A stretch of DNA of 64,000 nt from NCBI RefSeq assembly GCF_026571515.1, contig NW_026857783.1, forward strand, positions 178,878 to 242,877, in the 5' to 3' direction. This DNA is from Ruditapes philippinarum (lineage: Eukaryota). The translations under genes were made by a program, and so were the position numbers. Positions 3,201 to 52,789 of the stretch are shown here, piece by piece (positions within the stretch are counted from its first letter, which is position 1; each line of letters begins with the position of its first letter). The notes under the pieces were generated by a model. The model saw nothing but the letters and a program-made list of their open reading frames with translations. It was not told where the DNA came from and made no database searches.

Positions 3201-3204
3201 AGGT

Positions 3205-11038: not shown

Positions 11039-11094
11039 GTATGATTTCTATCCTGTAGTTGGTGTTTTGACATTTTTCCATACTGAAGTTGTAT

Positions 11095-12879: not shown

Positions 12880-12905
12880 GTGATTGATTCTAATACAAAA
12901 TAAAT

Positions 12906-14751: not shown

Positions 14752-14825
14752 CCTGGAAAGAGTTGTTTCCCACTTGTGTAGCTAAAACTTCATCAAATAT
14801 GAAACAAGCATCAGAGTTTGTGATG
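14752..14825 (+). CDS. PARP4: VWA domain exon
   Basis: AWKELFPTCVAKTSSNMKQASEFVM; acceptor gtttatttcag|, donor ATG|gtaaat; phase 1 to 0. Confidence 0.65.
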
Positions 14826-14954
14826 GTAAATACACATGTATTTGTATAGAGAAAGTAAAGGAATTTTGTGACATTGCTCTTAATTTGTTTATGTCAAGCT
14901 TTGCTACTGACAGAAAAATAGGACCTTCACACTCATACGAGTGTATCTACAACA

Positions 14955-16105
14955 GGGTGTATCTTTGTTATACCCCCACAAACGAAGTTTAGGGGGGGTA
15001 TATAGGAGTCAGCTTGTCGGTCGGTTGGTCGGTCGGTCGGTCCACATCATGGTTTCCGGACGATAACTAGAGTTTGGAATGAGATATTGTAATCAGACTT
15101 GGTATATAGCAACCTTATGTGGAAACTCCGGTTGGTATTGCATTTGGACCCCCTGGAGTCAAGGTCAAGGTCAACGTTACTGAAAATAGAAAAATGGTTT
15201 CCGGACAATAACTACAGGTAGGAACGAGATATTGTTATCAAACTTGGTGTATAGCAAGCTTACATGAAGACCTGTGTTGGTATTGCATTTGGACCCCCTG
15301 AGGTCAAGGTCACCGTTACTAAAAATAGAAAAATGGTTTCCGGACAATAACTATGAATGAGATATTGTTATCAAACTTGGTGTATAGAAAGCTTATATGA
15401 AGACCTTGGTTGGTATTGCATTTGGACCCCCTGGGATCAAGGTCAAGGTCACCGTTATTTAATGGTTTCCGGACAATAACTACAGTTAGGAATGAGATAT
15501 TGTTATCAAACTTGGTGTATAGCAAGCTTATATAAAGACCTGGGTTGGTATTGCATTTGGACCCCCTGGGGTCATGGTCAAGGTCACTGTTACTAAAAAT
15601 AGAAAAATGGTTTCCAGACAGTTACTAGAGTTAGGAATGAGATATTGTTATCAAACTTGGGGTATAACAAGCTGATATGAAGACCTGGGTTGGTATTGCA
15701 TTTGGGCCCACTGGGGTCAAGGTCACTGTTACTAAAAATAGGAAAATGGTTTTCGGACAATAACTTGAGTTAGGAATGAGATATTGTAATCAAACTTGGT
15801 GTATAGCAAGCTTATATAAAGACCTGGGTTGGTATTGCATTTGGACCCCCTAGGGTCAAGGTCACCGATACAGTGTTACTAAAAATAGAAAAATGGTTTC
15901 CGGACAATAACTAGAGTTAGGAATGAGATATTGTTATCAAACTTTGTGAAAAGCAAGCTTATTCAGAGACCCCAGTTGGGATTACAATTAATTGAAATAT
16001 TTCTTTGTACACAGTTGATAGTTTGTGATCAATTTTTCTTCAGACTACTTACTTTTCAAAAAGTCAAAGTTGCTGGTGGGGGTATTAATCACCTTCAGTG
16101 ATAAG
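14955..16105 (+). mobile_element. TIR element (TTATACCCCCAC...GTGGGGGTATTA) with ~165-bp satellite x5
   Basis: 5' gttatacccccacaaacgaagtttagggggggtatataggagtcagcttgtcggtcggttggtcggtcgg; 3' gttgctggtgggggtattaatcaccttcagtgataag; internal unit ...ggtttccggacaataactagagttaggaatgagatattgttatcaaacttggtgtatagcaagctta... Confidence 0.6.
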
Positions 16106-16817
16106 TCTAGTTATTTTTTGGCACTAAAGGCCTTAAGGCAGTAATGTTTTTATCTTTGAATTTTACCTTTTACTGTTTCATGTAATAATTGATTGTACAG
16201 GGAAACTTCTGTAGTTCTTCTTTCTTATGAGAAGGAAGAACTATGTTTGTTGAAATTCACTGAGCCGTGATGCTATTAAATTTCACCTAGAAATCCAAAG
16301 CATTCAGAATGTATATGGGACATGCCATTTTGTTCTATGGACAGTGCCATTTTGATATAAGGTAGTTTTACTTTTAGTTTAGAGGTAAACACAGTTACTA
16401 GCAGCAGACTATAGGAAACAGTATGATTGTCATCATAGAACAGAAGAAGAAAAGTTTAGAAAAAAAAAGACAAAATTTAATGTATTATAATAAATGTCAT
16501 TTTGCGTGTATAAATTATTTCAGTAAATATATATTGTGACACCCCCACTTCCACCTTCAAATGGGACAAGTCTATCTGTTAATTGCATCAGAAAACATTG
16601 TATTGTCTATTTAAAGGTTGAATTGTCTGGCCCCTTTAAGACCATTTCTAGTCAAAGGAAACCACATCTGCATGACACTGCTTATTTTTTCCAGCTTCTA
16701 AACATGGACTCCTGTTTATAATCAAATGTATATTCATAAATTTAGTGTTGCCCTTGAAACAATTTTGGTAAGCTTAACTTGTTGAAGTAGCTAAATCTCA
16801 AGATAATGATATTTCAG

Positions 16818-17005
16818 AGCTTGTCTCCAACTATGGGTAACACAGAGGTTGTGAGGCCACTACATACATTCTACCTGATGAAACAGGAAAACTCCATGCA
16901 GAATGTGTTACTTATATCTGACGGACATATGAACAACACGGAACTGTTACTAAATAGTGTACGAACAAATTGCCAACATACCAGAGTGTTTACTGTAGGA
17001 GTCAG
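16818..17005 (+). CDS. PARP4: VWA domain exon
   Basis: SLSPTMGNTEVVRPLHTFYLMKQENSMQNVLLISDGHMNNTELLLNSVRTNCQHTRVFTVGV (VLLISDG... and VFTVGVG-type VWA blocks); acceptor atatttcag|, donor AG|gtaaat. Confidence 0.8.
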
Positions 17006-17745
17006 GTAAATCAATAAATACTTGGTTTAAACATATTTTTATTCAAAGTAATATATACATGTTAAAATTTACAATTTAAGCAGAAAGGAATTGGACCGAG
17101 AGCTACAATAGCTCATGGTAGTCCTCTCCTTTAACAAAAGCAATATGTTCATACATGTATATTACATGGCTTATCATAATTTTAATTAAACCCTATAAAG
17201 AAGGAAAATGAAGAGAAAAAAAATACAAATACATGTATGCAATTGATAGAAAATAATAAAGAGAAAGATGGAGAAAAGAGGAGTTTGCGGATGTTTCTAT
17301 ATCATTTGTCGTTTTGGTAGGAACATCATGTATGGAAAAAAAAACACTTTATTTTGAAGTGATAAGAAAATTGTTTGTGTTGATCAGGTATATGATTTAT
17401 AGGGATTTATAGATTGGTGAAAGTGGCAAGGAATCAAATAAGTTATAACTTGATTGCATTTTATAAAAGTGCATGTAATCATACTGTAGACAGGCTAAGA
17501 GCACATTTTTAAACAGATTTTTGAAGTTCTTATACATTCTTATTGTTCAGGTTTACCTGCTTTGTTATTAAAAATAATGTCCTAAAGATAATTTTTGTTA
17601 ATACATTATAGAAAAAGATAAGCATTTGGGCTTGATAACATATATCCCAAAGATATTTATATCGTTTATTAATGAGATGATACTTAAAAAAAAGTTGTAT
17701 AACATGAAATAAGGTAAAATACTTGAGGTTAGTGATTTGAGCATC

Positions 17746-17911
17746 AGCTCAGTCTGATCAGGATCCATGCTGTTCACTATCAGTTTCTCTACTTGTAATA
17801 GAGTTGGTAAGCGAACAGCATGGATCCTGATCAGACTGCGCGGATGCACAGGTTGATCTGGATCCATGCTGGTCACAAATGCGCAATGTTGGTTTTGTCG
17901 TGACGCGGCTC
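17746..17911. mobile_element. MITE family M, 5'-truncated copy abutting acceptor of exon 17928
   Basis: ...cagtctgatcaggatccatgctgttcactatcag...atgttggttttgtcgtgacgcggctc then atttatgtttttacag|TGG. Confidence 0.75.
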
Positions 17912-17927
17912 ATTTATGTTTTTACAG

Positions 17928-18027
17928 TGGCACAGCTGACAGACACATGTTGAGGGCTTTGGCTAGAGTTGGTGCAGGGTCCTTTGAGTACTTTGATACA
18001 AAAGTTAAATCTAAATGGGAAACAAAG
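17928..18027 (+). CDS. PARP4: VWA domain C-terminal exon
   Basis: SGTADRHMLRALARVGAGSFEYFDTKVKSKWETK; acceptor tgtttttacag| lies 14 bp after a MITE end; donor AAG|gtaaaa. Confidence 0.75.
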
Positions 18028-18391
18028 GTAAAAGTGATGGGCTGAGTATAGAAATAGTATGGTTAATTGTTTGTCATGTTGCTTAAGTTATTCCAAAATT
18101 CATGTTGTATTCCAGAAGACTGATACCTACAAACATTTCCAAAGATTTGTATGAAATAATTTTCTATTTTTCCATGAATATCTGTCAACTTCTCCTCAGA
18201 ATACATTGCATCAGTCTATGTAGGATAAAAAGACATCAGCCAAAAAATGTTTTCAACCAAATAGAAATTGAAAAATTTATCCAGCTTGGAGACTGCAGTT
18301 GATAAAGATCTGTAGAAATTGTACCCTCCCTGCAATTTGAGGTTCTTGTCTTTATTTTATCTATTATATCTAAATGTCTTTATTTAACAAG

Positions 18392-18562
18392 GTTAAATCT
18401 CAGATCAGCAAGGCCGCCCAGCCAGGTCTGACGTCAGTACAAGTGGAATGGGAACAGCATGGTGCCGATGTTCCACCTCCGGTTCAAGCCCCTCGACAAA
18501 TTACGGCCCTATTTAACGGTTCTCGTTCCGTGATATACGGATATGTTCCTAACTGTACAATG
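18392..18562 (+). CDS. PARP4: PARP4-like post-VWA exon
   Basis: VKSQISKAAQPGLTSVQVEWEQHGADVPPPVQAPRQITALFNGSRSVIYGYVPNCTM; acceptor tatttaacaag| is weak; donor ATG|gtaagt; 57 codons. Confidence 0.65.
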
Positions 18563-18926
18563 GTAAGTTCATTTTCTATTTTGTTTTCTGGTTGCTATAA
18601 TCTCTTATGGAGTATTAGAAATCTGTGTTTATATTTGCCACTTACATTTTTGTATTATATCTCCCTCTAAAAGTTATGATATTATAATTTATTTCCCTCT
18701 AAAATTATATTAATTTTGCCTTTAATATTTTTGAAAAAGACCATTGCTGGAGACTTACAACTAAATGCTCATGCAAATTTTATAAAAAAAAGAAAAGAAC
18801 TTTTTAACACATTATATTTGAATTTTATGCATCTAACTTGCATGCTATCTGTAGTATTAAATGGTAATTGTGCATAAAAATTAATATCCATATCCTCAAT
18901 ATAAGTATGAACTTCTGTAATTTTAG

Positions 18927-19007
18927 GCAACATTGAGAGCAAGTGTAGCTGGAGAAGAGGTCTCCACCATGGTATCAACCTCGGACCTCAGTATTACAAA
19001 TGGACAT
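18927..19007 (+). CDS. PARP4: PARP4-like post-VWA exon
   Basis: ATLRASVAGEEVSTMVSTSDLSITNGH; acceptor taattttag|, donor CAT|gtaaga; 27 codons. Confidence 0.6.
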
Positions 19008-19260
19008 GTAAGATTTTAAACTGTAGCATAGATTGATTATAAACTTCCCATAGCATGCCAAACATAATCATAAGTTGTTGTTTTAATATTAAAATTCAGA
19101 TATAACTTTTTTAACAATTTATCGAATATTTAGTATTGGGTCATTTGGTACGCTGACAATATATCATTATAAAATTTCTGTGAAAGTTAACTATACAGGC
19201 ATGACCTCACATGTATTTATTTAAAATTTGATAAATAGGCATAATAACTTTATTTTCCAG

Positions 19261-19341
19261 ATTTTACATCGTCTGACAGCAAGGGCAATAATCAGTGACT
19301 GGGAAAATGGAGTCTTGTCTGCTGACCGTACTGACCATGAG
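19261..19341 (+). CDS. PARP4: PARP4-like post-VWA exon
   Basis: ILHRLTARAIISDWENGVLSADRTDHE; acceptor tttattttccag|, donor GAG|gtacag. Confidence 0.65.
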
Positions 19342-19689
19342 GTACAGTAAAATTCCCCAAATCTGTGGGGTATTTATTATAGACATTTTTCACCAGTACA
19401 GGAACCATACTGTCCAGTCTTACCAGAATCATTTTTGACAGCAGTATTTCAACATTTTGACATCAGATTACTAGTACCAGTGAAATATGATTTATATCAT
19501 TCACTATATATGATCTCTAATTTATAAAAACACAGTCTTTTTATATGTTAGGCATAATAAAATTTTATCCTAAACATTTTCTTATATCAAATGTTGGTCA
19601 ATCACCAATATAACAGTCGATGTTTTGAAATATATAGTCATTCCAGCTCAACTTGACAATGAAAAAAGAGGCATAATGTTTTTTTAAGA

Positions 19690-19850
19690 TGATAAATTGC
19701 AGTCTATTATATATAGAGCATATTGAATGAGTGTTGGTTTAATACTAAATTTATTGAACGAGTTGAATAAAATCATATTATGCAAGCATAATATTTTTCT
19801 ATTCCACGAGTTAAATGAATTTAGTTTTGATTCTACACGAATATAGTATT
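19690..19850. repeat. palindromic MITE-like family C copy
   Basis: atattgaatgagtgttggtttaatactaaatttattgaacgagttgaataaaatcatattatgcaagcataatatttttctattccacgagttaaatgaatttag. Confidence 0.4.
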
Positions 19851-20096
19851 CTATTTGTCACACATATAAAAAAGAACGGTAAACTGTTAACAAGAGTCAC
19901 TTTTATTTGACGCACTATAGTGTAAAGCTAACAAGGCGCTTTAACGCTATGTTCATATATAGAGCGCCAATGACATCACATCAAAGTGTTATTACACAAG
20001 TGTTATATTGTTTTTAGTACATGGCTTTATTGTACTCCTGCACTATTAATTTAAAGAAGTAGGAAATTTCATGTATTTAATTATATTTTATTACAG

Positions 20097-20198
20097 ATAT
20101 TGAAGATGAACACTAAAGATTATATCATTGAGTTAAGTAAGGAGTACTCTATTGTCACTCAATTCACCAGCTTTGTTGCCATAGAAAAAAGAGACAAG
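20097..20198 (+). CDS. PARP4: PARP4-like exon with TSFVA motif typical of VIT/VWA-family C-terminal region
   Basis: ILKMNTKDYIIELSKEYSIVTQFTSFVAIEKRDK; acceptor ttttattacag|, donor AAG|gtatag. Confidence 0.7.
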
Positions 20199-20727
20199 GT
20201 ATAGTATTTCAATCTAAAATTTATAGTACTTGCATCAATGTTAGGGGGTTTTTTTTGTGTGCGGAGGTGGGGGTGAGTGGAGGGGATGGGGTGGTCAGGA
20301 GAGGTTTGTTGCATATCAGACTGGATCATCTAGAGTTAACCCACTAGATGCAAGATTTAAGATTACTTGCATACTTTGAACAATAAATTCCACTGTCATT
20401 ATGCATAAGTTGTATAAGTTGTAAATTTATGGGCAGCTGTAGAGAAATGGTGCTTAATAAAGATATGCGGTTCCTTTAAAAAAATTGATTATGGTTAAAA
20501 TGTAATAAAAACTCTGCTGTTACTAGTAATTATTGGTTTCAGCCTTATGGACTGTATTAAAATAATACATTTCTAGTAAAGTTTTAAAAACGATAATCAC
20601 AGCACAACAATTGTGTAATCCTTTGCGAAAAAGATTTTCTTTGCTAAATGCTCATTAGTTGACACAAAGTTAACACCAGTGAAAATAATGAAATTTCCAA
20701 ACAGAGCTGATATTACTTATGATGGTT

Positions 20728-21039: not shown

Positions 21040-21132
21040 GACGAGGAGAAGAAAGCAGTAGATGCCCCGGCTATGTCAGAACTAGTGGAGCGTGAAAATG
21101 TGGATCAACTTCAGTATATGGCATTTGAAGAG
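21040..21132 (+). CDS. PARP4: acidic linker exon
   Basis: DEEKKAVDAPAMSELVERENVDQLQYMAFEE; acceptor tatttccaaag| lies directly after a repeat-element fragment; donor GAG|gtaaga. Confidence 0.55.
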
Positions 21133-24349: not shown

Positions 24350-24453
24350 GAAAGCCACCAAAACCAAAAAGTTCACATTTGTTTGTAAAAACTTTGACTG
24401 GCAAAACTGTGAATCTGGACTTGAATACTGACTGTACTATAGCTGACTTAAAG
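24350..24453 (+). CDS. ubiquitin-like domain, N-terminal half
   Basis: (R)KPPKPKSSHLFVKTLTGKTVNLDLNTDCTIADLK parallels ubiquitin MQIFVKTLTGKTITLEV; acceptor ttgatctag|, donor AAG|gtattt; no in-frame ATG, so it is an internal exon. Confidence 0.75.
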
Positions 24454-24790: not shown

Positions 24791-25725
24791 CAGTACAAGT
24801 GATGGGGAAAAGTAATTTTTCTCTTAATGAATTAACATTTGTCTTTTATTCCCAAGAGACATATATAAATCAAAATAATTTAGAAAGAAATGTTCTTACT
24901 TTAAGCTTATCAATTTATCTAATGAAGCCTTTCTTATACCCCTGAATGTAGATTTTAATCTTTAACCTATTTGATCCAAATGTGATTTAGACTTTGACAC
25001 CACTTGTTTAGAACCAGCCTAGTCTGCACATCCATGCAGTCTGACCACAAGGGCTCTATACTGTGGGAAGTTCAATTTTCATATTATTAGCTTGACTATT
25101 TGCAGAATAATCGAGCTAATGCAGTCACCCATTTGTTGGCGTTGGTGTCCCTGTGGTTAAGTTTTTGCGTGTAAGCTGATATCTCCATAACTACTGAAGG
25201 GAATGGATTGAAACTTCACACACTTGTTCTCTGTGATTATCTAACATGATTGGCACAAGTCCAATAACTCTTATTTGCTTTTTTTGCATAATTATGCTCC
25301 TTTTTTACTTAGAAATTCTTGTTAAAGTTTTTGCTTGTAAGCTGGTATCTTCATAGGGTTTGTGCTTTTTTGGGGACAATTTAATGCTTTCATAATAAAG
25401 CAGTGATTTACTCGATAAGACATCTTAATAACAAGCCTTTGTACCTTTTTGGACAATTTTATGTATTCATATAGGTAAGTACATGTATTATTATACTCAA
25501 TGAAACACCCTTGTGACAACTTTTTCGATTGGTGGAGCGCTGCTGTCCTCCAACAGTTCTTATTTTTAAATTGAAATCCTTTAAACTTTGGCTGAACTGT
25601 TCCAGGGCAAATCTTTTTCACAATGTCAGCAGGTCAGGAGTTCAACAATGATTTATCATGATAGCTATCCAAGAGATATAAGTCCGTTCTTTTTTTAAAC
25701 ACCATTTATTTGTTGTACAATCAAG

Positions 25726-25870
25726 GCTATGATACAAGACAAAGAGGGTATACCTCCTGACCAGCAGAGACTGGTTTACGCTGGACGTCAGCTAGTAGAT
25801 GACTGGACATTGCAGGATTATGATATACAAAATGAGTCAATGTTACATCTTGTATTGAGATTAAGGGGCG
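25726..25870 (+). CDS. ubiquitin-like domain, C-terminal half
   Basis: [48 protein letters not shown](G) parallels ubiquitin [47 protein letters not shown]; acceptor caatcaag|, donor G|gtaagt. Confidence 0.85.
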
Positions 25871-27614: not shown

Positions 27615-27849
27615 GAGCCGCGTCATGACAAAACCAACATAACCCGTTTGCGACCAGCATGGATCCAGACCAGCCTGCACATCTTCGCAGTCTGATCAGG
27701 ATCCATGCTGTTCGCTTACCAACTCTATTACAAGTAGAGAAACTGATAGTCAACAGCATGGATCCTGATCAGACTGCGCGGATGCGCAGGCTGGTCTGGA
27801 TCTATGCTGGTCGCAAACCAATTCTGTTGTTTTTTTTGTGACGCGGCTC
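27615..27849. mobile_element. MITE family M, full copy with ATAT TSD
   Basis: gagccgcgtcatgacaaaaccaacataacccgtttgcgaccagcatggatccagaccagcctgcacatcttcgcagtctgatcaggatccatgctg...tgtgacgcggctc; flanks atat|...|atat. Confidence 0.8.
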
Positions 27850-29202: not shown

Positions 29203-29426
29203 GCTCGCAGCAGAATTGATGACGATATGGAAAGAATGAACGTATATGATGGAACATCTGAAGAAGAAGAATCTGAAGAGTCAGATTTTGAATGTTCAGA
29301 AACTCTTGGAGTTGAACAAGAATTTGGAGTAGATCTTACTGCTGAAGAAGAAAGAGAATATGATTCAGATGATTCGGAAGGAAATTCTGAAGATGAACTG
29401 TTACATGAAGGACTGCAGATGAACTT
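29203..29426 (+). CDS. acidic (E/D/S-rich) exon; ends at GTGAGT donor, alternatively at in-frame TGA 29428-29430
   Basis: ARSRIDDDMERMNVYDGTSEEEESEESDFECSETLGVEQEFGVDLTAEEEREYDSDDSEGNSEDELLHEGLQMN; acceptor cctttattgcag|; donor GTGAGT at 29427 overlaps stop TGA; phase 2 continuation is compatible with exon 33448. Confidence 0.6.
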
Positions 29427-30035
29427 GTGAGTTTTTGTAAAGGCTATTTAGCTTTTTTTATATTTAGCTAGATTATACATGTATGTAGCTTAATAATGAA
29501 GTGGCAGATGATAATTATTGTCCATGTGTATGTTCAGGTTTTTTTTACTGAACCATTAAGCTTTGTCAATATTTTTTAAATAACTTGGCACAATAATGTT
29601 TGTTCACCATCACGAAACAATATGTCATAATTTAAATTCACAATAAGATGTCAATAATTAGGAACCATTACTGTTTCATTCCATGGGCATTTTTTATTAT
29701 TTTAATTAGATTTTCCAACAAAAAGCTCAGGTAATAAGATAAGTGAATATGGACAGACAGGCATTAGAGTGTGCCTAAGTTGTTAGAGTGTGCCTAAGTT
29801 GTAAACATTAGGTTCTCAGTGTAACTGAATATTTCTGTAACTTGGCAGTTATAAAAAAAGGGCTTACATTCATTGTAATGACTATTACACCTTCAAATAC
29901 ATATCTCTACCAAAGGTAATAACTTAAAGGTCATTCCGACAAGTTTGTTGGTAGTACAATGTATGCGAATTATGTTCTGTTCCAATAACCTGAGGATTTG
30001 TGCTGGGATGAGATACCAGCAGGGAGTTTTTTAGC

Positions 30036-31700
30036 TCACCTGTCACAAAGTGACAGGGTGAGCTTTTGTGATCGCTTTTCGTCCGGCGTCTGTCCGGCGT
30101 CCGTCCGTCCGTAAACTTTTGCTTTAAAGGACATCTCCTCATAAACCACTGAGCCAATTTCATCCAAACTTCACAGGAATGTTCCTTTGGTGGTCACCTT
30201 GAAAAAATTGTTCAAAGAATTTAATTCCATGCAGAACTCTGGTTGCCATGGCAACCGAAAGAAAAATCTTTAAATATCTTCTTTTAAACAACCCTAAGAG
30301 CTAGAGCTAAGATATTTGGCATGAAACATCTTCTAGTGAGTGTTTACCAAGTTTGTTCAAATAAAAGCCCTGGGGTCAAAATTGGCCCCGCCCCAGGGGG
30401 TCATAGATTTTCCCTATATGCATATAGTAAAAACTTAAAAAATCTTCTTTTAAAGAACCCAAAGAGCTAGAGCTAAGATATTTGGCATGAAACATCTTCT
30501 AGTGAGTGTCTACCAAGTTTGTTTAAAAAAAAGCCCTGGGGTCAAAATTGGCCCCGCCCCAGGGGGTCATTGATTTTCCCTATATGCATATAGTAAAAAC
30601 TTAAAAAATCTTCTTTTAAAGAACCGAAAGAGCTAGAGCTAAGATATTTAGCATGAAACATGTTCTAATGGGTGTCTACCAAATTTGTTCAAATAAAAGA
30701 CCTGGGGTCAAAATTGGCCCCGCCCCAGGGGGTCATTGATTTTCCCTATATGCATATAGTAAAAAAATCTTCTTTTAAAGAAACCAAGAGCTAAGATATT
30801 TGGCATGAAACATCTTCTAGTGAGTGTCTACCAAGTTTGTTCAAATAAAAGCCCTGGGGTCAAAATTGGCCCCGCCCCATGGGGGGTCATAGATTTTCCC
30901 TATATGCATATAGTAAAAACTTAAAAAATCTTCTTTTAAAGAACCCAAAGTGCATAAGCTAAGATATTTGGCATGAAACATCTTCTAGTGAGTGTCTACT
31001 AAGTTTGTTTAAATAAAAGCCATGGGGTCAAAATTGGCCCCGCCCCAGGGGGTCATTGATTTTCCCTATATGCATAAAAATTATAGTAAAAACTTAAAAA
31101 ATCTTCTTTTAAAGAACCCAAAGAGCTAGAGCTAAGATATTTAGCATGAAACATGTTCTAATGGGTGTCTACCAAATTTGTTCAAATAAAAGCCCTGGGG
31201 TCAAAATTGGCCCCGCCCCGGGGGTCATTGATTTTCCTTATATGTGTATGGCAAAAACTTAAAAATCTTCTTTGAAAAAACCCATATAGCTAGAGATTAG
31301 ATATTAAGCATGAATCATCTTCTAATCAGTGTCTACAAAGTTTGTTTAAATAAAAGCCCCGGGGTCAAAATTGGCCCTGCCCCGGGGGTCATTGATTTTC
31401 CTTTTTTGTGTATAGCAAAAACTTAAAAATCTTCTTTGAAAAAACCCAAATAGCTAGAGTTTAGATATTAAGCATGAAACATCTTTTAGTAAATATCTAC
31501 AAAGTTTGTTCAAATAAAAGCCTGGGGGTCAAAACTGGCCCTGCCCCAGGGGTGTCATTGTTTTTAACTATATGTGTATAGTAAAAACTTAAAAAATCTT
31601 CTTTTAAAAAACCCAATGAGCTAGAACTTAGATGTTTAGCATGAAACATATCTGGCCCTCTTGTTTTAGATCTTGAGACAGCAAGATATTTTATGCCTAG
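30036..31700 (+). mobile_element. satellite-bearing element: perfect 33-bp hairpin head, (GTCCG)n tract, then ~9 units of a 165-180-bp satellite
   Basis: agctcacctgtcacaaagtgacagggtgagct hairpin at 30036-30068; tcgtccggcgtctgtccggcgtccgtccgtccg; unit ...gagctagagctaagatatttggcatgaaacatcttctagtgagtgtctaccaagtttgtt..aaagccctggggtcaaaattggccccgccccagggggtcattgattttccctatatgcatatagtaaaaac; related head at 61140-61320. Confidence 0.7.
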
Positions 31701-34058: not shown

Positions 34059-34665
34059 ATGGCACAATCCTATGAGAAATTCTCGGCACAGGCAGAGGTA
34101 TCTACAAAAAGGCTTATGGATGTAGACACACATAAAGCTACGCCTGAATTAGAACAGATGTTAGATGCTGGAGCTGATACAATGTTTAAAAAAGTAAACT
34201 CCAAATCGGCAGCATATGACAGTGATGATGAATCTTGTGATGATGATATGGGATTTGATCTTTTTGGGGGGGATAGTTATGAAAAACAGGAAAGGTCTTC
34301 ACCTAGTCCTGTCTCACGTAAAACACATGGTGGAATGCTCAATCGTGACATACATTTAAGATCACCTATAGAGATAGAGAAAGAAGAGATTGTCCAGAAA
34401 GCTGTATCACATGTAAATGTAGATATGCTAGAGTGTAGTGAAGAGCCTGAATTTGCATACTGTTTGAGCATGGAAAAAGACTATACTGAACCTATGGAAG
34501 AGTGTTATGAAGATGATGACATTTATGAGAACCCTGAAGTTGAATATGAAGGTCAGAGGGGGACCTTTGCAGATTTGAGTCATGACTTATCTGCACGTGA
34601 ACAAATTACTATGAAAGCAAATGTAGTATCAAGTTTTGATAGTGAACCTCAGTTTGATGAAATTG
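34059..34665 (+). CDS. large acidic exon containing ribosomal P-stalk-tail-like motif
   Basis: 607-nt ORF MAQSYEKFSAQAEV...DSDDESCDDDMGFDLFGGDSYEKQERSSP...; acceptor tattatag|ATG; donor TTG|gtgagt at 34666; ATG sits at first exon position. Confidence 0.65.
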
Positions 34666-34894: not shown

Positions 34895-35770
34895 TACAGT
34901 TGACTCTCAATAAGTCAAAATCGCTTAACTCAAAATTCCGCGTTAGTCGAAGAATTTCTAAAGTCCCGTCAAATTTCCTTCTTTATCTTTGTCTTTTTAC
35001 TCTGCTTAGGTCAAATTTTGACTTACTGAGACTCCTGTTTAGTCGAAAAGAAAATTTGGTCTTGTCAATTTAAGTCCAACATTTTTTCATCTCAATTAGT
35101 CGAAGTGTGAAAACAGCTGATTGATCAAAGGTCGGCGACATCAAGGTGAGAATTTGTCACTTGTGATTCACACGTTTCATAGTAATTTTAATTGCCGATC
35201 ATCATGTATTATTAACATGTTGTAAAAGTGGCTTTAATCGGTTTCAGGACTTAATTGGTTTTAACAGTTATATATCTAAATTAAGATTTAGTAACATTTC
35301 TTAAAGAAAGTTGACTCGTGCCAGTCTGACAGGTTTTAGTCAAATAACAGCCTAGGTATTGATGTTTGTTATCAACGTAAATGACATTTGTATAATTAAT
35401 GTTCCGTCATATTGCATACATTAATATGTACTTCCGGTTCACGATAGTTGCTTCTTTTGTTTTTGTCCGATGATCAATTCACTTCAAATATTAGATAAAT
35501 TTTTGAATGTTGAAATAAATATGTTATTGTGCTTTTATTATAATGAATTGTCATGAGTGCTTATTAAAAACATGTGCTTTACTGATGAATACTAACAAAC
35601 TTGCATTTAAGTCATTGCTACAAATGTTTGTGTTTCTTTGCACATGATTCAATCAGGCACATGTATATACATGTACGAATGTCAACGTAATCCACGTTAC
35701 TCAAATTTCGTTTATCTAGAAGTAAAATGCCCAGTCCCTTGGATTTCGAGTTACCGAGAGTCAACTGTAG
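34895..35770. mobile_element. ~870-bp TIR element (ACAGTTGACTCTC...GAGAGTCAACTGT) inserted into a copy of the 180-bp satellite unit
   Basis: left atacagttgactctcaataagtc, right cgagagtcaactgtag; flanking 34755-34894 and 35771-35900 resemble one unit of the 30-31.7 kb satellite; partial copy at 43555-43830. Confidence 0.6.
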
Positions 35771-41160: not shown

Positions 41161-42444
41161 AAAAAACCAGCAAGGAGAGCAATGAAGTCACATTTCAAAG
41201 CTCCTGAATCATCAAGTATTAGTTCACAAGCAGAAAAAGCAGAAACTGGCCTCCCTTCTCATCTTCATTTGAGTAATTGTTCCATGGCACCACAGTTGCA
41301 TCAGCTAATGGCACCACAATTGCAGCAAATGGCACCACAATTGCAGCCGCAAATGGCACCACAATTTCAGCAGCACATAGCACCACAGGTGCATCAACAA
41401 ATGGCACCACAATTGCAACAGCCACAACAACAGCTAGATATGCCACAACCTAATGCAAGAACTGATAAATTTATGTCTAGGTCTAAGCCTCCTAAATTTA
41501 TGTCTAGGTCTAAGCCTCTTGAAACTTATTCTGCATTGGAAAGGTCTGATGAATCATTGATGCATCAGATGGATAAAATTCCAACAGTGCATAATTATTT
41601 TTCAACAAGTTCTCCTTTTTCTCCTGCACCATTGAGTGCACCACCACCACCCCCACCTCCTCCAGGGGATACCCCAAGACCCACACCACAACTAGGGGTT
41701 GCTATTATTCCTTCATCTTTTCAAGTAGCATCTAGTTATCAAGCTCAGATACCAAGTTTTGGTTTTGGTGCAACAACGGGTGCATCACCACAACCCCCAC
41801 CTTCATCAAATAATGCGACTATACCACCCCCATGTCCTCCAATGCTTGCCCACAGATTCCAACCATCGAGAGCTCCAAGCTATTTATCTTTCGAAGTAGA
41901 GCCTAGATATGCAGCTAAAGCACCAAGTTTTGCTTTTAGTGCAACAACGGGTGCATCTCCACCACCACCACCTCCTTCAAAGGAAGCTCACAGACCACCA
42001 CCTCCACCAGGGGGTGCCCCCAGACCAACACCACCACCACCTCCAGGGGGTGCTCCCAGACCACCACCACCTCCAGGGGGTGCTCCCAGACCAGCACCAC
42101 CACCACCTCCAAGGGATGCTCCCAGACCTCCAGCTTCTCCAAGGGGTGCTCCTAGCCCTTCATCTTCTCTAGTAACATCTAGACATCCAGCTCCAGATCC
42201 AAGTTTTTCTTTTGGTGCAACAACTGGTGGATCTTTGGAAATGCTAAAAAGTTGTCCCAATATTAGCCCTATTAAGAGGATGATTGCAATGTCATTATCT
42301 AAATCTGCTGTTGATGATAATGATATGGAGTTTACCAAAGCCTCTAAGCAGGAAAGCAAAGAAATACCTGAGAAGAAAAGCATTGAAGCTCATGTTAGAA
42401 GAAATTATGGGGGAAGGAGGGTAGATATGCGTGAACTTCAAGAG
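41161..42444 (+). CDS. 1284-nt low-complexity exon: Q/P-rich MAPQLQQ repeats, FG-type PSFGFGATTGASP repeats, polyproline PPPPGGAPRP repeats
   Basis: long ORF in frame from acceptor ttttttttgcatacag| (41159-41160) to donor GAG|gtttgt (42445); 428 codons; repeat structure explains the overlapping antisense ORFs. Confidence 0.7.
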
Positions 42445-45829: not shown

Positions 45830-45959
45830 GATTCCCTGAATGTTTCTAAAGAGGACGAACTTGAACAAGAACTAAGAAAAGAAATGGAAGAAGAGAGGAG
45901 CAAACCACAGGTATCTTGGAGGGCAATGTCTATGCCTAGAAGTGAAAGAATATGTGATG
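45830..45959 (+). CDS. charged exon
   Basis: DSLNVSKEDELEQELRKEMEEERSKPQVSWRAMSMPRSERICD(G); acceptor tttcctttcaag|, donor G|gtaagt; only this donor (not CAG|gtatct at 45911) keeps downstream exons open. Confidence 0.5.
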
Positions 45960-46029
45960 GTAAGTGTATAAATAATGTAGAAAAAAACCCAGATTTATTT
46001 TGTGTTTAAGAGTTCTGAAGGCTCAGGGT

Positions 46030-46800
46030 GACATTTTTGGCCAGGTTCACCGTGAGATATAGTGCAAGGTTTCGATGGTTTTACAATGCACCTTATCTCC
46101 CTTGAAGTTTAATGATATGGTACAAAGCAAATTAACTTTAAATCGGAGAAGCAACTTCAAAGGAGCTAAGGATTGCAAATCCTGTGAAGTTTCACTGAAA
46201 TCCCCCAGCAGTTTTGGTGATGCAGCGTGGATAAGCTTATTCTACTAAAATATAGACCATTAAGGGGCCAAGACTTTGCACACAAAAAATCAAGCAGAAT
46301 ATCAAGAGGGTATGCACAACTAGGCTTGGTAGCAAACATAATCCTGTGAAGTTTCCCTGAAGTTTTGGTAATGAAGTGCGGACAAGCTTATTTTACCCGA
46401 AAATTGACCATTAAGAGACCATAAAAAGCAGAAAATCAAGACACTATGAACAACTCGGCTTTAATTTCACTTAAATCCCCCAGCGGTTTGGAGATGAAGC
46501 TCTGACAAGCTTATTTTACTCAATATTTGTCAATTAAGGGGCCATAATTTTGTAAAAAAATTTAAGGGAAAAATCAAGAGAGTATGCACAATTAAGCATA
46601 GCGACAAACAATATTGTGAAGTTTCACTGAAATCCCTCAAGTAATTAAGTTTGGTGATGAATCACTGACAAGCTTATTTTACTCGAAATTTGACCATTAA
46701 GGGGCCATAATAGTGCAAAACAAATTCAAGCAGAAAATCAATATACTATACACAAATAGGCTTGGTGACAAAAATAAATATAAAATTATATTTGTATAGT
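46030..46800 (+). repeat. ~150-bp satellite x~5, with inverted partial copy at 46960-47170
   Basis: units ...cctgtgaagtttcactgaaatcccccagcagttttggtgatgcagcgtggataagcttattctactaaaatatagaccattaaggggccaagactttgcacacaaaaaatcaagcagaatatcaagagggtatgcacaactaggcttggtagcaaaca...; related to the 61598-62410 unit. Confidence 0.6.
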
Positions 46801-47439
46801 TCCACTGATTGAAGAAGACAAATATTATTTTGTTAAACTTATTCAATAAATTCAGTTTGAAGCATACACTCTTACAACAATCTTTCATAGACTAATTAGG
46901 AAGATCATCAATAAACCTAAAGGTACATTATGCCTCAGAAGTCACTATTTTTATGCCAGTGAAGGAAGGCATATAGTAATTGCACTCACTGTCTGTCCAA
47001 TTCCATCCTTCCATATGTGCATCCAGTAATCTTTTCCGTGCTAAGTCATCTCTAACACTGCTGGGGGGATTTCAGTGAAACTAATCACAGGATTGGTTGT
47101 CACCAAGCCTAGTTGTGCATAGTACCTTGATATTCTGCTTGATTTTGCCCATTAATGGCCTATTTTAGATAAATAAAATTCAATTTAGAGCATGTTAACA
47201 AGGTAAAATAAGATAACAAAAATAAAAAGGTTTGGAGAAATAAAATGATAGCATTTTGGGGGCCTAATGGGCCTTAAATAATTAAAAATCATCCATGGAC
47301 AAATCCCTTGTGAATTAGTTTACATGTAATGTTGAGATTTTCTTAAAATGTCTACAACAGGTATATGTAACATTTTCTATAAAAACCACTGCATTTAAAC
47401 ATATTCAAGTTTCAGTATGAGTTTTATTATGCCCCCACA

Positions 47440-48110
47440 ATGTGGGAGCATATAGCGTTGCACTTGTCCGTTAGTCCGTCCGTCCGTCAGTTTGTCCAGC
47501 CGTACGTCCCGAAATCTTGTGAACGCAACTCCTCTTAAACCAGATGGCAGATTTTCCTTAAACTTACAGGGATGAACAACCTTAATGTGTAGATGGTAGT
47601 AAAGGAAGGAATTTTCGCTGCGACCAAATTTAACAGAATTATGGCCCTTTGTTGATTTTTTCACTAGATACTATGTAGAAATTTTTTGAACGCAACTCCT
47701 CTTAAACCGGATGGCAGATTTTGCTTAAACTTACAGGGATGAACAACCTTCAGGTGTAGATGGTAGTAAAGGAAGGAATTTTCGCTGCGACCAAATTTTA
47801 CAGAATTATGGCCCTTTGTTGATTTTTTCACTATATACTATGTAGAAATTTTGTGAACGCAACTCCTCTTAAACCGGATGGCAGATTTTGCTGAAACTTA
47901 CAGGGATGAACAACCTTCAGGTGTAGATGGTAGTAAAGGAAGGAATTTTGCTGCGACCAAATTTAACAGAATTATGGCCCTTTGTTGATTTTTAGCTTTC
48001 AACTTGTGGCACATGTAGTCCAAAAAATATTTGACCTAGAGTCATAAGATTGACAGAACAGTGGCGTGTGAGGGCATCCGTGTCCTATGGACACATTTCT
48101 AGTCTTTAAA
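47440..48110 (+). mobile_element. second copy of the ATGCCCCCAC...GTGAGGGCAT element with 3 units of the 180-bp satellite
   Basis: near-identical to 3205-4385 (ttattatgcccccacaatgtgggagcatatagcgttgcacttgtccg ... cagtggcgtgtgagggcatccgtgtcctatggacacatttctag). Confidence 0.65.
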
Positions 48111-48224
48111 TGTTTCTGTAGTCCTAAACTCACTTAATTTGTTAAATTGATTTAACTGCTTTGAATTTTAAAAAAAGGTCAGTATTAAAGTACAAAAATT
48201 AAGCAACCAAAAGTATATAGCGTG

Positions 48225-48815
48225 GTCAGACTGCACAGATGTTCAGGCTAGCCTGGTCAGACTGCATAGATGTTCAGAGCTAACTTGGTCAGACTGCACA
48301 GATGTTCAGGCTAGCCTGGTCAGACTGCACAGTTGTTCAGGCTAGCCTGGTCAGACTACACAGTTGTTCAGGCTAGCGTGGTCAGACTACACAGATGTTC
48401 AGGCTAGCCTGGTCAGACTGCACAGATGTTCAGGCTAGCCAGGTCAGACTGCATAGATGTTCAGGCAAGCCTGGTCAGACTGCATAGATGTTCAGGCTAC
48501 CCTGGTCAGACTGCATAGATGTTCAGACTAGCCTGGTCAGACTGCATAGATGTTCAGGCTACCCTGGTCAGACTGTGCATTTGTTTAGTCTAGCCTGATC
48601 AGACTGCACATATGTTCAGACTAGCCTGGTCAGACTTCACAGTTGTTCAGGCTAGCCTGTTCATACTGCACAGATGTTCAGGCTACCCTGGTCAGACTGT
48701 GCAGATGACCAGGCTAGCCTGATAAGACTGCACAGATGTTCAATCTAGCCTGGTCAGACTGCAGAGATGTTCAGGCTAACCTGGTCAAACTGCACAGATT
48801 TTCAGGCTAGCCTTG
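48225..48815 (+). repeat. 31-32-bp minisatellite, ~19 units, derived from MITE family M core
   Basis: unit cctggtcagactgcacagatgttcaggctag is ~24/31 identical to the MITE segment cctgatcagactgcgcggatgcgcaggctgg. Confidence 0.8.
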
Positions 48816-49007
48816 GTTTATATTTATTTTTATTTAAAAAAAAACAGGTTTAATGTCAAACCAAGATTTGTTGTTTTGGGCATTCTTAAGAGATCTTGTT
48901 TTCCTGTATTTTGTTATTGTCCTTGACTTTATGAAGTCTAATAATGAAGTTTGGTCAAACCACTCTAGCATGTGCATCTTTGTTCAGCTGTTTGTGCAGT
49001 TATAATT

Positions 49008-49212
49008 GAGCCGTGTCACAACAAAACCAACATAATTGGTTTACGACCAGCACAGTCTGATCAGGATCCATGCTGTTCGCTATCAGTATCTCTACTTGTT
49101 TTAGGGTTTGTAAGCGAACAGCATGGATCCTGATCAGATCTGGGGATGCACAGGCTGGTCTTGATCCATGCTAGTCGCAACCCATTATGTTGGTTTTGTC
49201 ATAGTGCGGCTC
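49008..49212. mobile_element. MITE family M (internally deleted copy)
   Basis: gagccgtgtcacaacaaaaccaacataattggtttacgaccagcacagtctgatcaggatccatgctg...atgttggttttgtcatagtgcggctc. Confidence 0.7.
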
Positions 49213-49343
49213 AAATATATTCATACTGTCTTCAATATTTCATGCAAACTTTAAACATTTCATCCTTTTGTTAATCTATTTCCTTGTCTGTAATAGTACT
49301 TTTTCACTTTATAATGTACACTTGTATTCAAATGATATTTTAG

Positions 49344-49418
49344 GCTCAATTATTAGCCAGGGGTTACGTTTTGGTGCGAGTCGTAAAGTTGTGGTTGAGA
49401 AAGAACAAGAGAAAAGAG
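49344..49418 (+). CDS. short exon
   Basis: (G)SIISQGLRFGASRKVVVEKEQEKR; acceptor gatattttag|, donor G|gtaaaa; phase 1 to 1. Confidence 0.4.
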
Positions 49419-49632
49419 GTAAAACTTTCCATGCTTTGTAGTAATTTTATTTTTTCATAGTGATATGTCAAAATTATATGTTTATGTCCATGCAAATGAT
49501 CAGTTCCTTAATTCCATGTAAGTAACCTTACTTTGCTGATATTGTACACCTGTGTTGAATTGGAAACCTTGATATAAGAACAAACACATAGTTATATGAG
49601 TGTAGTATATAAACAGGTATGGTTTACAAATG

Positions 49633-49871
49633 AGCCGCGTCATGACAAAACCAACATAATGGGTTTGCGACCAGCATGGGTCCAGACTAGCCTGCGCATC
49701 CGTGCAGTCTGAAAGGATCCATACTGTTCGCTATCAGTTTATTTACTTGTTACATGTATAGGGTCTGTGAGCAAACAGCATGGATCCTGATCAGACTGTG
49801 TGGATATGCAGGCTGGTATGGATCCATGCTGGTCGCAAACGCATTATGTTGGTTTTGTCGTGACGCGGCTC
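49633..49871. mobile_element. MITE family M, full copy
   Basis: gagccgcgtcatgacaaaaccaacataatgggtttgcgaccagcatgggtccagactagcctgcgcatccgtgcagtctgaaaggatcc...tcgtgacgcggctc. Confidence 0.8.
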
Positions 49872-50805
49872 AGTATTCAGTATTCAAAACATAGAAAGGC
49901 AAAGGAAACATTTGTTTTTATTGAACTTGTTACATTTCATAAGTTTCTTTAATAATCAAATTTCGAAATACCTAAATACGGCAGCCAACTTTTTATCTAC
50001 TTTTCCATAATTCTTTATGATTGCTCATTTTGAATGATAATGAAATAATTTGAAGTCCGAAATATTTCACTAACACACTATAGTTTCTTTATTTTCAATG
50101 CCCCCCAAGGGCCATACATTCTTTCAAAACAAGAGTGCTTTTAAAACCCCAGGTTGTGTTGTTTAATGTTAGTATATTTATGTCTAATATTTGTCATAAT
50201 GTCTTGATCAGTGTTAGCTTGACAAATTATATTTCAACACAACAAAAGAAATTGTATTATTTGGTATTTCCTTTTGTTGGCTTTTTTAGATTCCTAGATC
50301 TTCAAATAGGGCACAAAGAATATTTTGTTTTAGTTAGAAGTGCATAGAAATAACATTGCTAGCCTAAATGATTAGGTACTAGAGATTGGAGTTTGAATTG
50401 TGCAGAAAATGCTTGAAATTTGATAATTTAATGAAACAAATGAAAAACTTCCAACAGATAAGACTAAATTTGTAAAAGCATCCATCTTCGACCATGTCTG
50501 ACAAAATTATATATGAAATGGTGGTGTTTGTAGATCTCACTCCAGATTACGGCAAATAAAGCAACATTGCATTTACCAGTGCACAATTTAGCCACTGCTA
50601 ACTGAAAAGGTGCCAAAAAACATCTATAATTATATATAACAACAACAACCAATCAAATTGCCCGTTATATTCCATAATTAAATTTTATTTGTAAACAAAA
50701 TGCTGCAAATATTGCAAGATGATACATATTTCACCAACAATATCCAAAGATCATTTTTTTATTGTTTAACTGTTAATCTAATGATTCACTGTTCATTTTA
50801 TTCAG

Positions 50806-50927
50806 CAGAAATTTCTAGAGGAACTCGGCTATACGAGTATGGTATAGGAATGCAGATACCTTGTATCATCAGCGGACGTGGACTGGTGTTCCCTGATCTA
50901 GGTCAGGTTGTGAAAATGCAGAATCTG
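50806..50927 (+). CDS. C-terminal domain exon
   Basis: AEISRGTRLYEYGIGMQIPCIISGRGLVFPDLGQVVKMQNL; acceptor cattttattcag|, donor CTG|gtaagt. Confidence 0.55.
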
Positions 50928-52249
50928 GTAAGTACAATCAGGTAGCTTTTAGTGTAAAAGTATTGCTTTCAGACTATACAACCATGTATAATATAGTGCA
51001 GATACACTGATGTCCCAGTCCAATTTGTTTGACAAATGGATGCAATAAGTAATGTAAGCTTGGAAAAGTGTACTAGTAACTTGAACAAGGGTGAGCATAT
51101 AGTCGCCGCTTTGTCCGTCCGTGCATCCGCTCTCACGGGACAGTAAAAATGTGGCTAGTGGGACAATAGGTAATTGTTCTTTCTCTTTGATGTCATTCAT
51201 TCCACGATGCTTTTATGTGGCTATTTTCTTTTGTGTGGATAGAGAACAATAGAGTAGCCACATTATTACTGTCTCATTGGAACATAACTCGGACATAACT
51301 CTGAAACCGTAAGAGGTATCAACATGAAACTTTGTAGGAAGATTGGTCTCATTATATAGAAGTGCAGTGCAAAAGAACCATAACTCTGCCTTGCTTAATT
51401 TGGTTATAGTTATTGCCCTTTGTTCATTTTTATGCTTTGAACTATGTCTGTGACATAACTCTGACACTACATGAGGTATACTTACCTGTGTCCAAAACCT
51501 ATTCAGGGAGCATCACTTGGTTTAACTGCTTCTTGTCTTGACTATAAGAATAGTGCTTGAGCTTTCATATGCAAAAAGAGTAAGTTTTCATGCATCTGCA
51601 TCAACATATCACTTTAATTATGGTGTTGTGTGCAACTTCTTGAACAATTTCATGTCTCATGAGTCAAAGATATTTGCTTGAAACTTAAAAAGTTAAAAGT
51701 TTTTGAACCATAATTCAAGGTTTAATTCTCAAAGATGCAAAAAGTTAGTATGCATATTGACTGAATTATGGCCCTCTGAACTTTGAAAATTACTGGTTAA
51801 AGTTTATTTTTTCCAAGCCTTAAAACTCAATTTTGCTAGTCTAGGTATTCACTTGACTCTAGTATCATAACCAGGGGTCACTTTCCACTGCCCATAATTC
51901 TCGTGTGGATTAAAATATAGCCCTTCTTCCTGGTTCAGTTTAGTGTGCAAGATCTATTCACTTGAAGTCCTTAACACAGTCATGTGTTTCGGATCATAAT
52001 CACATGCTTATGTAAGTGAGGAGAACCTTTGAAAGTACTTTGTATATTATTTTATAAAAAAAAACTTGACACTTGTAACATCCATAAATGGCAATATGTC
52101 AAATATGCATGAGTACTCATTTTCGTTGCTTTGTCAAAACATACCGGTTACTATGATAACTAATTGACATTTGATTCTGATGATTCCATTGAAAACAAGT
52201 ACAATAAGCTGCTTTAATACAAAAAACAAATCATTGCTTTGTTTTACAG

Positions 52250-52349
52250 AATGGTTACTGGGAGATGAATGATAATTTGGAGAAATTACTCTGCATTGAC
52301 TTCAGTATCTGTAAATCTGTTCTGGAGACAGCTGGCTTAAAATCACTAG
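52250..52349 (+). CDS. C-terminal domain exon (NGYWE motif; possible VIT/VWA-family C-terminal/MVP-binding-like region)
   Basis: NGYWEMNDNLEKLLCIDFSICKSVLETAGLKSL(G); acceptor tttgttttacag|, donor TAG|gttggt. Confidence 0.55.
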
Positions 52350-52789
52350 GTTGGTATCATTTTATTGGCATTTTTCTAACCCTTTTCCTGTGTGATGGAA
52401 TTGCCGGATGATCAGTTGGAAATATTTCATTCACAGTTTAATGACATGCAATTCAAAATATAAAAAGTTGAGACAACCAACCTACAACCTAGTGCAGGGT
52501 TGTCACACTATTTCAAACGTTTCTCACCACAGTGTTGGAGCAGTACAAGATCCAGACCCTTCCAGAAATCATGATCACAAAGTAGAAAAATATTGTTTGA
52601 GCCTTTTTTTCGATAATTCTGATATTTTTTGATAGTTCTTATATTTTTCATTCATTATGATATATAAATCAGGAGATTGAGTATTTAATCATTGAAGGGC
52701 CTTGTCCAGAATTGTACCGGAATATGCTATTAAGTACTGTACTCCAACACTTTTTGTCCCCTACCGGTTTAACTGGAGGGGACTTTAGG

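Follow-up and report, generated by a model that had tools for sequence, protein, structure and literature searches.

A ribosomal P-stalk tail look-alike in the PARP4 linker of Ruditapes philippinarum, a possible bait for stalk-docking proteins

Why does an internal exon of Ruditapes philippinarum encode what reads like the C-terminal tail of a ribosomal P-stalk protein? The question is raised by a 64,000-nt stretch of the genome (contig NW_026857783.1, positions 178,878 to 242,877 of the forward strand), referred to below as the window. An initial annotation of this stretch described a mimic of the P-stalk tail inside an acidic exon and proposed that it could act as a decoy or tether for P-stalk-binding factors. 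The look-alike is real, and the key to its interpretation is the host gene, which that annotation did not recognize. By position and by the similarity of its neighbours, the motif exon is part of a predicted gene for PARP4 (vault PARP). It shares the strand of this gene and falls into the linker that separates the VIT-vWA module from the vault-binding domain. The tail copy recurs in this linker of other PARP4 proteins, and is probably a functional docking or bait motif. All coordinates are collected in Table 1.

The tail of the stalk proteins uL10/P0, P1 and P2 (Pfam PF00428) consists of an acidic serine run followed by MGFxLF. It docks translational GTPases, GCN2 and ribosome-inactivating toxins through the acidic run and the F-x-L-F core (PMC3280276, PMC6162817, PMC11624264). 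Shiga-like toxin 1's A1 chain recognizes the DDD and FGLF elements of the tail (PMC3280276). The window motif has the same build. Codons 51-76 of the exon (34209-34286, + strand) encode AAYDSDDESCDDDMGFDLFGGDSYEK, in which the core occupies residues 61-71 of the 202-residue internal exon and runs on as GGDSYEK... The acidic run (DDD) and the F-x-L-F core are both present (DDDMGFDLF), and the extended module contains two CK2-type S-x-x-[DE] sites (SDDE and SCDD). Eight of the 11 positions of the core are identical to the stalk consensus SD[D/E]DMGFGLFD (PMC3280276). The three mismatches are Cys for Ser, an Asp where the consensus has Gly between F and L, and a Gly in place of the final Asp directly after LF. 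The string in the title of the initial annotation, SDDDMGFDLFGG, omits one Cys; the true string is S-C-DDDMGFDLFGG. Unlike the tail of the stalk proteins, the window motif is internal and has no free carboxylate, it has Gly-Gly-Asp in place of the terminal Asp, and it sits in an ADP-ribosyltransferase, whereas the real tail sits on the ribosome.

The match exceeds chance. On a 13-position score for the P-tail the window motif reaches 17 of 18, and every other position in all six frames stays below 12. Shuffling of the exon peptide produces even the loose core [ML][GE]Fx[LM]F only 20 times in 30,000. The Pfam family Ribosomal_60s aligns exactly at the motif with the C-terminal end of the profile (positions 74-88 of 88), a match that is sub-threshold (E=0.044, 14.8 bits against a cut-off of 28.1). 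In a tblastn search of the window with human P2, ESEESDDDMGFGLF is aligned to DDESCDDDMGFDLF. This 14-residue tail is the only part found; no P-protein N-terminal domain or hinge was detected in the window, and the predicted gene product is no P protein. On sequence grounds the motif is a real look-alike of the P-stalk tail rather than a coincidence. The exon is also as acidic as first described: its 202-residue peptide contains 24% Asp plus Glu and has a net charge of -30. The open reading frame (ORF) measures 211 codons from stop to stop, the second longest in the window (34% GC), and the exon is bounded by an AG acceptor at 34057-58 and a donor, TTG|GTGAGT, at 34666.

The window has the intron-rich make-up of eukaryotic DNA, and the PARP4 assignment is based on exon order and on similarity along the whole gene. 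An exhaustive HMMER search, run with the post-vWA exons as a composite query, yielded about 50 long PARP4 proteins, the representatives counted below. The long proteins map colinearly on the window by tblastn, from about 612 to 20210 and again from 52211 to 54394. The gene is colinear on the + strand from about 612 to 54397, and it extends past the 5' end of the window, the first mapped exon being at about 612. Its motif exon comes after the ubiquitin-like domain (Ubl) exon and before the C-terminal exons. The best identities are with PARP4s of bivalves and gastropods, such as 88% to Mytilus edulis in the VIT exon, and the nearest named fragment is PARP4-like from Crassostrea gigas (80% identity). 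Pfam identifies PARP in the catalytic exons with E=1e-10, together with a weak PARP_reg match. VIT is found with E=1e-24, and VWA_3 and VWA_2 are found below the cut-off on single exons. VIT followed by vWA downstream of the catalytic domain is the PARP4 order, colinear with the named PARP4 proteins. In a PDB search with the catalytic and VIT part, human PARP4 is the best hit (E=1e-74, full-length chain); catalytic-domain constructs of human PARP4 give E=1e-25, with PARP2 behind at 2e-6.

The C-terminal exons join in frame (AGLKSLG|LKCHEEIL...) and match the C-termini of orthologues P0127, P0131 and P0135 by tblastn. Alone, the joined exons match in PDB only human PARP4, residues 1583-1701 (E=1.4e-4), and the family profile gives E=1e-43. 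Pfam, in which PARP4_MVP-ID was sought, reports no family for these exons, single or joined. They are predicted to encode the MINT domain, the part that holds PARP4 in place within the vault (PMC12280208). The disordered regions of PARP4 are free in the vault lumen, and PARP4 affects the choice of proteins that associate with vaults (PMC12280208). The segment between vWA and the MVP-binding domain, in which the motif lies, is the same that forms the disordered region of vertebrate PARP4 (the largest exon, exon 30 in human; PMC4038475). The vertebrate linker is likewise disordered and hypervariable in length and sequence; it shows positive selection in mammals and birds, and a role as pathogen interface has been put forward for it (PMC4038475).

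The orthologues bear out the conservation of the DDDMGF(D/G)LF core that the initial annotation had put forward as a check. Six of the 50 long PARP4 representatives contain [ML][GE]Fx[LM]F with an acidic run in the same linker, far above shuffles; the run is weak in the clownfish protein. The copies are SDEEEEMGFGLFEDD in the scallop Argopecten irradians (P0135), SDVDDLGFNLFGDDDD in the oyster Magallana gigas (P0138), SESDEDMEFGLFDQE in the amphioxus Branchiostoma belcheri (P0131), GDGMGFGLFDD in the clownfish Amphiprion ocellaris (P0201), DEDFAMGFGLFDN in the millipede Chamberlinius hualienensis (P0223) and DDDDDDMGFGLFDD in an mRNA-like contig (P0167). MGFGLF is exact in four orthologues, with an acidic run before it or acidic residues after it. 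In shuffles that keep local composition, the core turns up in 0.25 proteins on average and MGF[GDNS]LF in 0.003, and reversed sequences yield none. The six proteins score 15-18 of 18 on the 13-position scale, while 0 of 3000 shuffles reach 15 or more. The last 24 residues of human P2 (with a tail that agrees with PMC3280276) match these six motif proteins and no others within the set. For four of seven motif segments Pfam gives Ribosomal_60s and no other family (best E=4e-4).

In every protein with a detectable FTSFVAVE landmark, roughly 120-330 residues separate this landmark from the motif that follows it. Four copies (scallop, millipede, clownfish and P0167) keep the Gly and an acidic residue (D or E) after LF. 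The GF[DN]LFG substitutions are common to oyster and window and may represent a maintained lineage variant. In the scallop gene the motif is kept in eight of eight RefSeq isoforms. P0167 is a single 5.57-kb ORF with untranslated regions, with contigs from two independent sequencing runs, and is most simply a mature BRCT-PARP-VIT-vWA-...-motif mRNA. The amphioxus module is a separate, frame-preserving exon of 41 codons (Branchiostoma belcheri contig L002, 13648-13770), and its similarity to P proteins runs on into the Lys/Glu hinge (KKD...EESE); by its look, this exon was captured from an RPLP gene, whose last coding exon it would have been. The linker flanks around the motif are unalignable between species. 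The core has either been under long-term constraint or been captured repeatedly at the same place; that it is kept or recaptured while the flanks are unalignable argues for function. Five degenerate candidates, P0171 (SDDLGFGYIDLY), P0236 (SDFMGYCMFDN), P0250 (DEDYGFSIME), P0127 (ESMGFGDGDE) and P0242 (MDEVGFAP repeats), were rejected, with scores within the shuffle range. A search with the unique segment around the oyster motif, for conservation among oysters, came back empty from an index that seems to cover long eukaryotic proteins poorly.

A different identity of the motif has to be weighed against these data. It could belong to another acidic-hydrophobic class, such as LC3-interacting or adaptor/clathrin-type DxF/DLF motifs, or the ORF could lie outside the mature protein. 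Several motif classes commonly combine an acidic run with aromatic residues behind it, the Pfam match in the window is sub-threshold, and the splice phases do not directly fit the neighbouring candidate exons. The ORF also opens with an ATG directly after an in-frame TAG. On the other side, the exact MGFGLF with acidic residues in four orthologues and the amphioxus extension into the hinge are specific for stalk tails, and Ribosomal_60s is the sole family reported for the majority of motif segments. The length of the ORF, its canonical splice sites and its expected place in a colinear PARP4 gene speak for a coding exon. We consider this the least likely of the readings, and quite improbable. 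Because of the ATG after the in-frame TAG, a separate gene starting at 34059 was also considered; it is unlikely, as the exon lies between colinear PARP4 exons of the same strand and the orthologues share the place of the motif.

The closest relative of the exon is found in another genomic sequence. A homologue search with the exon peptide gives a sole match, the genomic fragment P0001 on contig L001 (98% identical). L001 is a JGI metagenome contig, an independent genomic sequence, with 98.6% identity over the exon and an identical motif; the distal intron is only about 90% identical to that of the window. Four of the differences within the exon are non-synonymous and one is synonymous. L001 reads through the donor into the intron and is therefore uninformative on splicing. 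Two metagenome scans, one for the exon peptide and one for DDMGFDLFGG as a degenerate DNA pattern, matched nothing. About 870 bp at 34897-35767 of the window are absent from the otherwise near-identical L001, an insertion/deletion polymorphism that possibly involves a mobile element.

The stalk tail is not the only host-protein piece in these linkers. From sponge to amphioxus, Pfam and BLAST searches with short queries show the orthologue linkers to be mosaics of pieces of highly conserved host proteins (P0128, P0131, P0138, P0139, P0142, P0145, P0158, P0163, P0181, P0216 and P0227). Pfam detects C-terminal pieces (helices) of 14-3-3 in two Branchiostoma species. In Magallana, Mytilus, Hydra and Nematostella it detects about 60 N-terminal residues of actin (profile positions about 2-65 of 410), with the same boundaries in cnidarians and molluscs. 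It also detects pieces of the Hsp70 substrate-binding domain in Magallana and Saccostrea, a calmodulin-like EF-hand pair in a Mytilus paralogue and ubiquitin domains in orthologue linkers. Short queries recover a histone H3 tail in the Sinanodonta linker (89% over 18 residues), a histone H4 tail in the P0227 linker (76% over 21 residues) and nine perfect heptads of the RNA polymerase II C-terminal domain (CTD) in the Sycon linker. Two PARP4-like models of Mytilus edulis, P0145 (CAG2205451.1) with an actin piece and P0158 (CAG2205447.1) with the EF-hand pair, are apparently neighbours, which suggests tandem paralogues with diversified modules, although chimerism of the gene models is possible.

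In the window, the host-protein modules are limited to the Ubl, the stalk tail and FG repeats; pieces of actin, 14-3-3, calmodulin, histones, Hsp70 and the CTD were sought in the window, and none turned up. The Ubl is complete and ends in LRLRGG, and its second half is 76% identical to ubiquitin. It is preceded by KPPKPKSSH, with no start codon and with canonical splice sites. It matches the internal Ubl in PARP4 of Biomphalaria and Sinanodonta, and Plakobranchus PARP4 and P0235 have an internal Ubl as well. The large linker exon contains Q-rich repeats of the MAPQLQQ type, long proline runs (repeated PPPPPGGAPRP) and three nucleoporin-like FG units, PSFGFGATTG, PSFAFSATTG and PSFSFGATTG. Comparable FG/Pro-rich stretches occur in orthologue linkers, and this exon is probably the counterpart of the hypervariable largest exon of vertebrate PARP4.

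The mosaic allows a reading without function, in which a retro-copied or duplicated RPLP fragment was exonized in a tolerant disordered linker and does nothing there. Highly expressed genes, such as those for ribosomal proteins, actin, Hsp70, ubiquitin and histones, are the commonest sources of retro-copies, and every fragment in the PARP4 linkers stems from very highly expressed genes. The excess of non-synonymous differences between the window exon and L001, the patchy spread of the motif and the lack of detectable flank conservation between species point the same way. The window copy is moreover degenerate at two functionally important positions (PMC3280276, PMC6162817). However, in lineages that split more than 500 million years ago the core is near letter-perfect within a linker that can no longer be aligned, which requires long-term purifying selection or repeated capture in the same region of the same gene. 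Neither the retention of the motif in every scallop isoform nor the common boundaries of the actin pieces in cnidarians and molluscs is expected of a relic, and the GF[DN]LFG variant common to oyster and window looks maintained, unlike random decay. A neutral relic is accordingly judged unlikely.

We tentatively favour a different account, as a real possibility rather than a probability: the motif would be a captured P-stalk tail module with a selected role as bait for foreign factors that dock to the stalk. A copy of the C-terminal tail of a P-stalk protein would have been built into the disordered PARP4 linker between VIT-vWA and the vault-binding domain. With the C-terminal domain anchoring PARP4 in the vault, the linker and its tail look-alike would be displayed in the lumen beside the ADP-ribosyltransferase domain. 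The motif would work as a short linear docking motif, the acidic run providing electrostatic contact and the F-x-L-F core entering a hydrophobic pocket, like the real stalk tail. It could thus capture proteins with a pocket for stalk tails, among them toxins of the ribosome-inactivating-protein type or other stalk-homing effectors, and captured factors would end up at the enzyme or inside the vault, where they would be modified or sequestered. Binding, lumenal display in Ruditapes philippinarum and the bait function are what we infer from these features. The stalk tail would be one of several modules of host hub proteins displayed by animal PARP4 linkers. The bait is favoured because the companion modules are incomplete fragments of hub proteins exploited by pathogens, and because their spread is specific to lineages and paralogues. 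It is also favoured because a low-copy protein cannot out-compete ribosomal tails as a sponge, yet could be a trap attached to an enzyme. Of the two roles in the initial annotation, a passive competitive decoy is unlikely on stoichiometry, given five tails per ribosome; a bait or tether on an enzyme inside the vault is more plausible.

Several points weigh against the bait. To our knowledge, no evidence ties PARP4 to any toxin, and the default partners of a motif of the stalk-tail type are abundant host translation factors. The two substitutions around LF fall where toxins are sensitive: Ala at any of the last five tail residues weakens the binding of Shiga-like toxin 1 (PMC3280276), and deletion of the last Asp costs the ricin A chain more than 20-fold (PMC6162817). 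The internal position leaves the motif no free carboxylate. The spread of six in 50 is patchy; among the proteins examined, neither the isoforms of cnidarians and sponge nor the mammal-like representatives have the motif. L001, the sole close comparison, shows no sign of strong constraint on the whole exon. The motif exon is a predicted part of the mRNA, and its phase (0/1) fits no neighbouring candidate exon directly. A defence role of PARP4 is likewise putative, suggested by positive selection (PMC4038475).

The same sequence and recurrence data are also compatible with endogenous partners. In this case the look-alike would dock eEF1A, eEF2, eRF3, eIF5B or GCN2 to PARP4 or the vault lumen, where the docked proteins would be cargo or substrates of ADP-ribosylation, or the motif would modulate ribosomes enclosed in vaults. 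Translation GTPases are abundant and are the default binders of exposed stalk tails. About 8% of cytosolic Dictyostelium vaults contain 80S ribosomes, whose orientations are ordered, and the vicinity of vaults is enriched in 69 of 79 ribosomal proteins (PMC13100048). The serines of CK2 type upstream of the core are similar to those that are phosphorylated in P proteins (PMC11624264). A housekeeping link to translation would, however, predict more uniform conservation than the observed spread, and human-type PARP4s appear to be without the motif. Endogenous partners also leave unexplained the incomplete actin, 14-3-3, Hsp70 and histone-tail pieces in the same linkers and the positive selection on the mammalian linker (PMC4038475), and the ribosome-in-vault data come from an amoeba. 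This explanation is possible, if doubtful.

A wider and rather less assured extension of the bait reading is that the PARP4 linker is an evolvable, lumen-facing display of look-alikes of those host proteins that pathogens exploit most. Its modules would be the stalk tail, the actin N-terminus, the 14-3-3 C-terminus, the Hsp70 substrate-binding piece, the calmodulin-like EF-hands, ubiquitin, the histone H3 and H4 tails, the RNA polymerase II CTD heptads and the FG repeats. If so, the vault-PARP4 particle would be an ancient, animal-wide effector trap, comparable to the integrated decoys of plant NLR proteins, and the window module would be a bait against ribosome-inactivating toxins.

Integrated decoys are known from plant NLRs, such as the WRKY domain in RRS1 and the HMA domain in RGA5/Pik-1, and NLRP1 and CARD8 have 'tripwire' linkers. 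As in the NLRs, part of some host protein, or an imitation of a site that pathogens target, would reside in a defence-associated protein with patchy, lineage-specific occurrence. The PARP4 fragments are indeed patchy between lineages and between paralogues, and paralogues differ in their modules (P0145 and P0158 of Mytilus edulis). Unlike the NLRs, PARP4 is no established immune receptor, with no effector, cleavage or signalling output on record, and many of its modules are short or incomplete pieces in a disordered linker, not folded domains. A second parallel is provided by synthetic or engineered stalk-tail peptides directed at ricin and Shiga toxins. P-tail peptides in free form bind the ricin A chain and inhibit it (PMC6162817), and a tail away from the ribosome can fill the pocket with which the toxins bind ribosomes and so inhibit them (PMC6162817; PMC3021518, 'zymoxins'). 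Those peptides are man-made and keep the terminal Asp, whereas the window copy is natural, genome-encoded, internal and a putative binder. Compared with Daugherty et al. 2014 (PMC4038475), where the vertebrate linker shows no recognizable modules, the linkers of invertebrates, amphioxus and one fish carry modules here.

What vaults and PARP4 do has been asked for decades. A recognizable docking motif in the part of PARP4 that hangs in the lumen would give a concrete handle on vault function and on which proteins bind the peptide (translation GTPases, GCN2 or ribosome-inactivating toxins) and become vault cargo or substrates of ADP-ribosylation. Together with the other host fragments and the positive selection in mammals, the stalk tail would turn a vague 'host-pathogen interface' into a specific integrated-bait hypothesis. 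The stalk tail, the hypervariable PARP4 linker and the general idea of integrated decoys are already known; what is new is that they come together, in a copy of the stalk tail that is natural, recurrent and genome-encoded and forms one module of the mosaic linker of PARP4. As far as the searched literature shows, PARP4 would be the first natural non-ribosomal host protein with a stalk tail. Full-text searches found no paper linking PARP4 with 'P-stalk' or 'ribosomal stalk', no account of a mosaic of host hub-protein fragments in PARP4 linkers and no account of PARP4 as decoy or bait, the PARP4 matches to this last search being unrelated as judged by their titles and abstracts.

Table 1. Motif elements and predicted PARP4 exons in the window
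Feature	Position	Strand	Basis or remarks
Core motif DDDMGFDLFGG	34239-34271	+	look-alike of P-stalk C-terminal tail
Hexapeptide MGFDLF	34248-34265	+	inside core motif
Extended module DSDDESCDDDMGFDLFGGD	34218-34274	+	acidic serine-containing run, hydrophobic core, trailing Asp
Window motif peptide YDSDDESCDDDMGFDLFGGDSYE		+	
Acidic motif exon	34059-34665	+	607 nt, 202 codons + 1 base; phase 0 in, 1 base out
PARP regulatory and catalytic exons	612-7447 (e.g. 1450-1629, 5793-5891, 6631-6834, 7367-7447)	+	Pfam, tblastn with at least 10 PARP4 orthologues
VIT and vWA exons	8045-17027 (9569-9793, 10877-11038, 13762-13953, 16806-17027, others)	+	Pfam, tblastn
Conserved post-vWA exons to FTSFVAVE landmark, and next exon	17926-18033, 18392-18562, 18927-19010, 19258-19347, 20094-20210, 21040-21132	+	
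Ubiquitin-like domain, two spliced exons	24350-24453, 25726-25870	+	Pfam ubiquitin E=4e-18; first half by tblastn
Second acidic linker exon (candidate)	29203-29426	+	phase 0 in, 2 bases over; ORF, strong acceptor and donor
Large linker exon, Q-rich, proline-rich, FG repeats	41161-42444	+	phase 0/0; longest ORF in window, 428 codons
Small linker exon	45830-45910	+	phase 0/0, donor 45911; 88% identical to fragment P0132
C-terminal vault-binding (MVP-interaction/MINT) exons	52250-52349, 53988-54394, stop 54395-54397	+	

The splice phases divide the linker exons into two groups. A phase-consistent chain leads from the FG exon through 45830-45910 and 52250-52349 to 53988-54394, and the phase-0 backbone of the linker runs 21132 to 41161 to 45830 to 52250. 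The Ubl pair (1/1), the candidate acidic exon (0/2), for which no homologue was found, and the motif exon (0/1) join neither one another nor this backbone directly. Given the misfit, either four small exons went undetected or the Ubl pair, the acidic exon and the motif exon are alternative cassettes.

The introns of the gene also contain repeated sequence. ORF fragments with the signature ...SMDPDQTARMRRLVWI.../...IRIHAVRLPTLLQVEKLIVNSMDPDQ... are found at 12917-13189 (-), 17601-17909 (-) and 27629-27838 (+), and represent an interspersed repeat family in the PARP4 introns. Further repeats, at 25079-25283 and 30028-30150, have matches in parts of L001.

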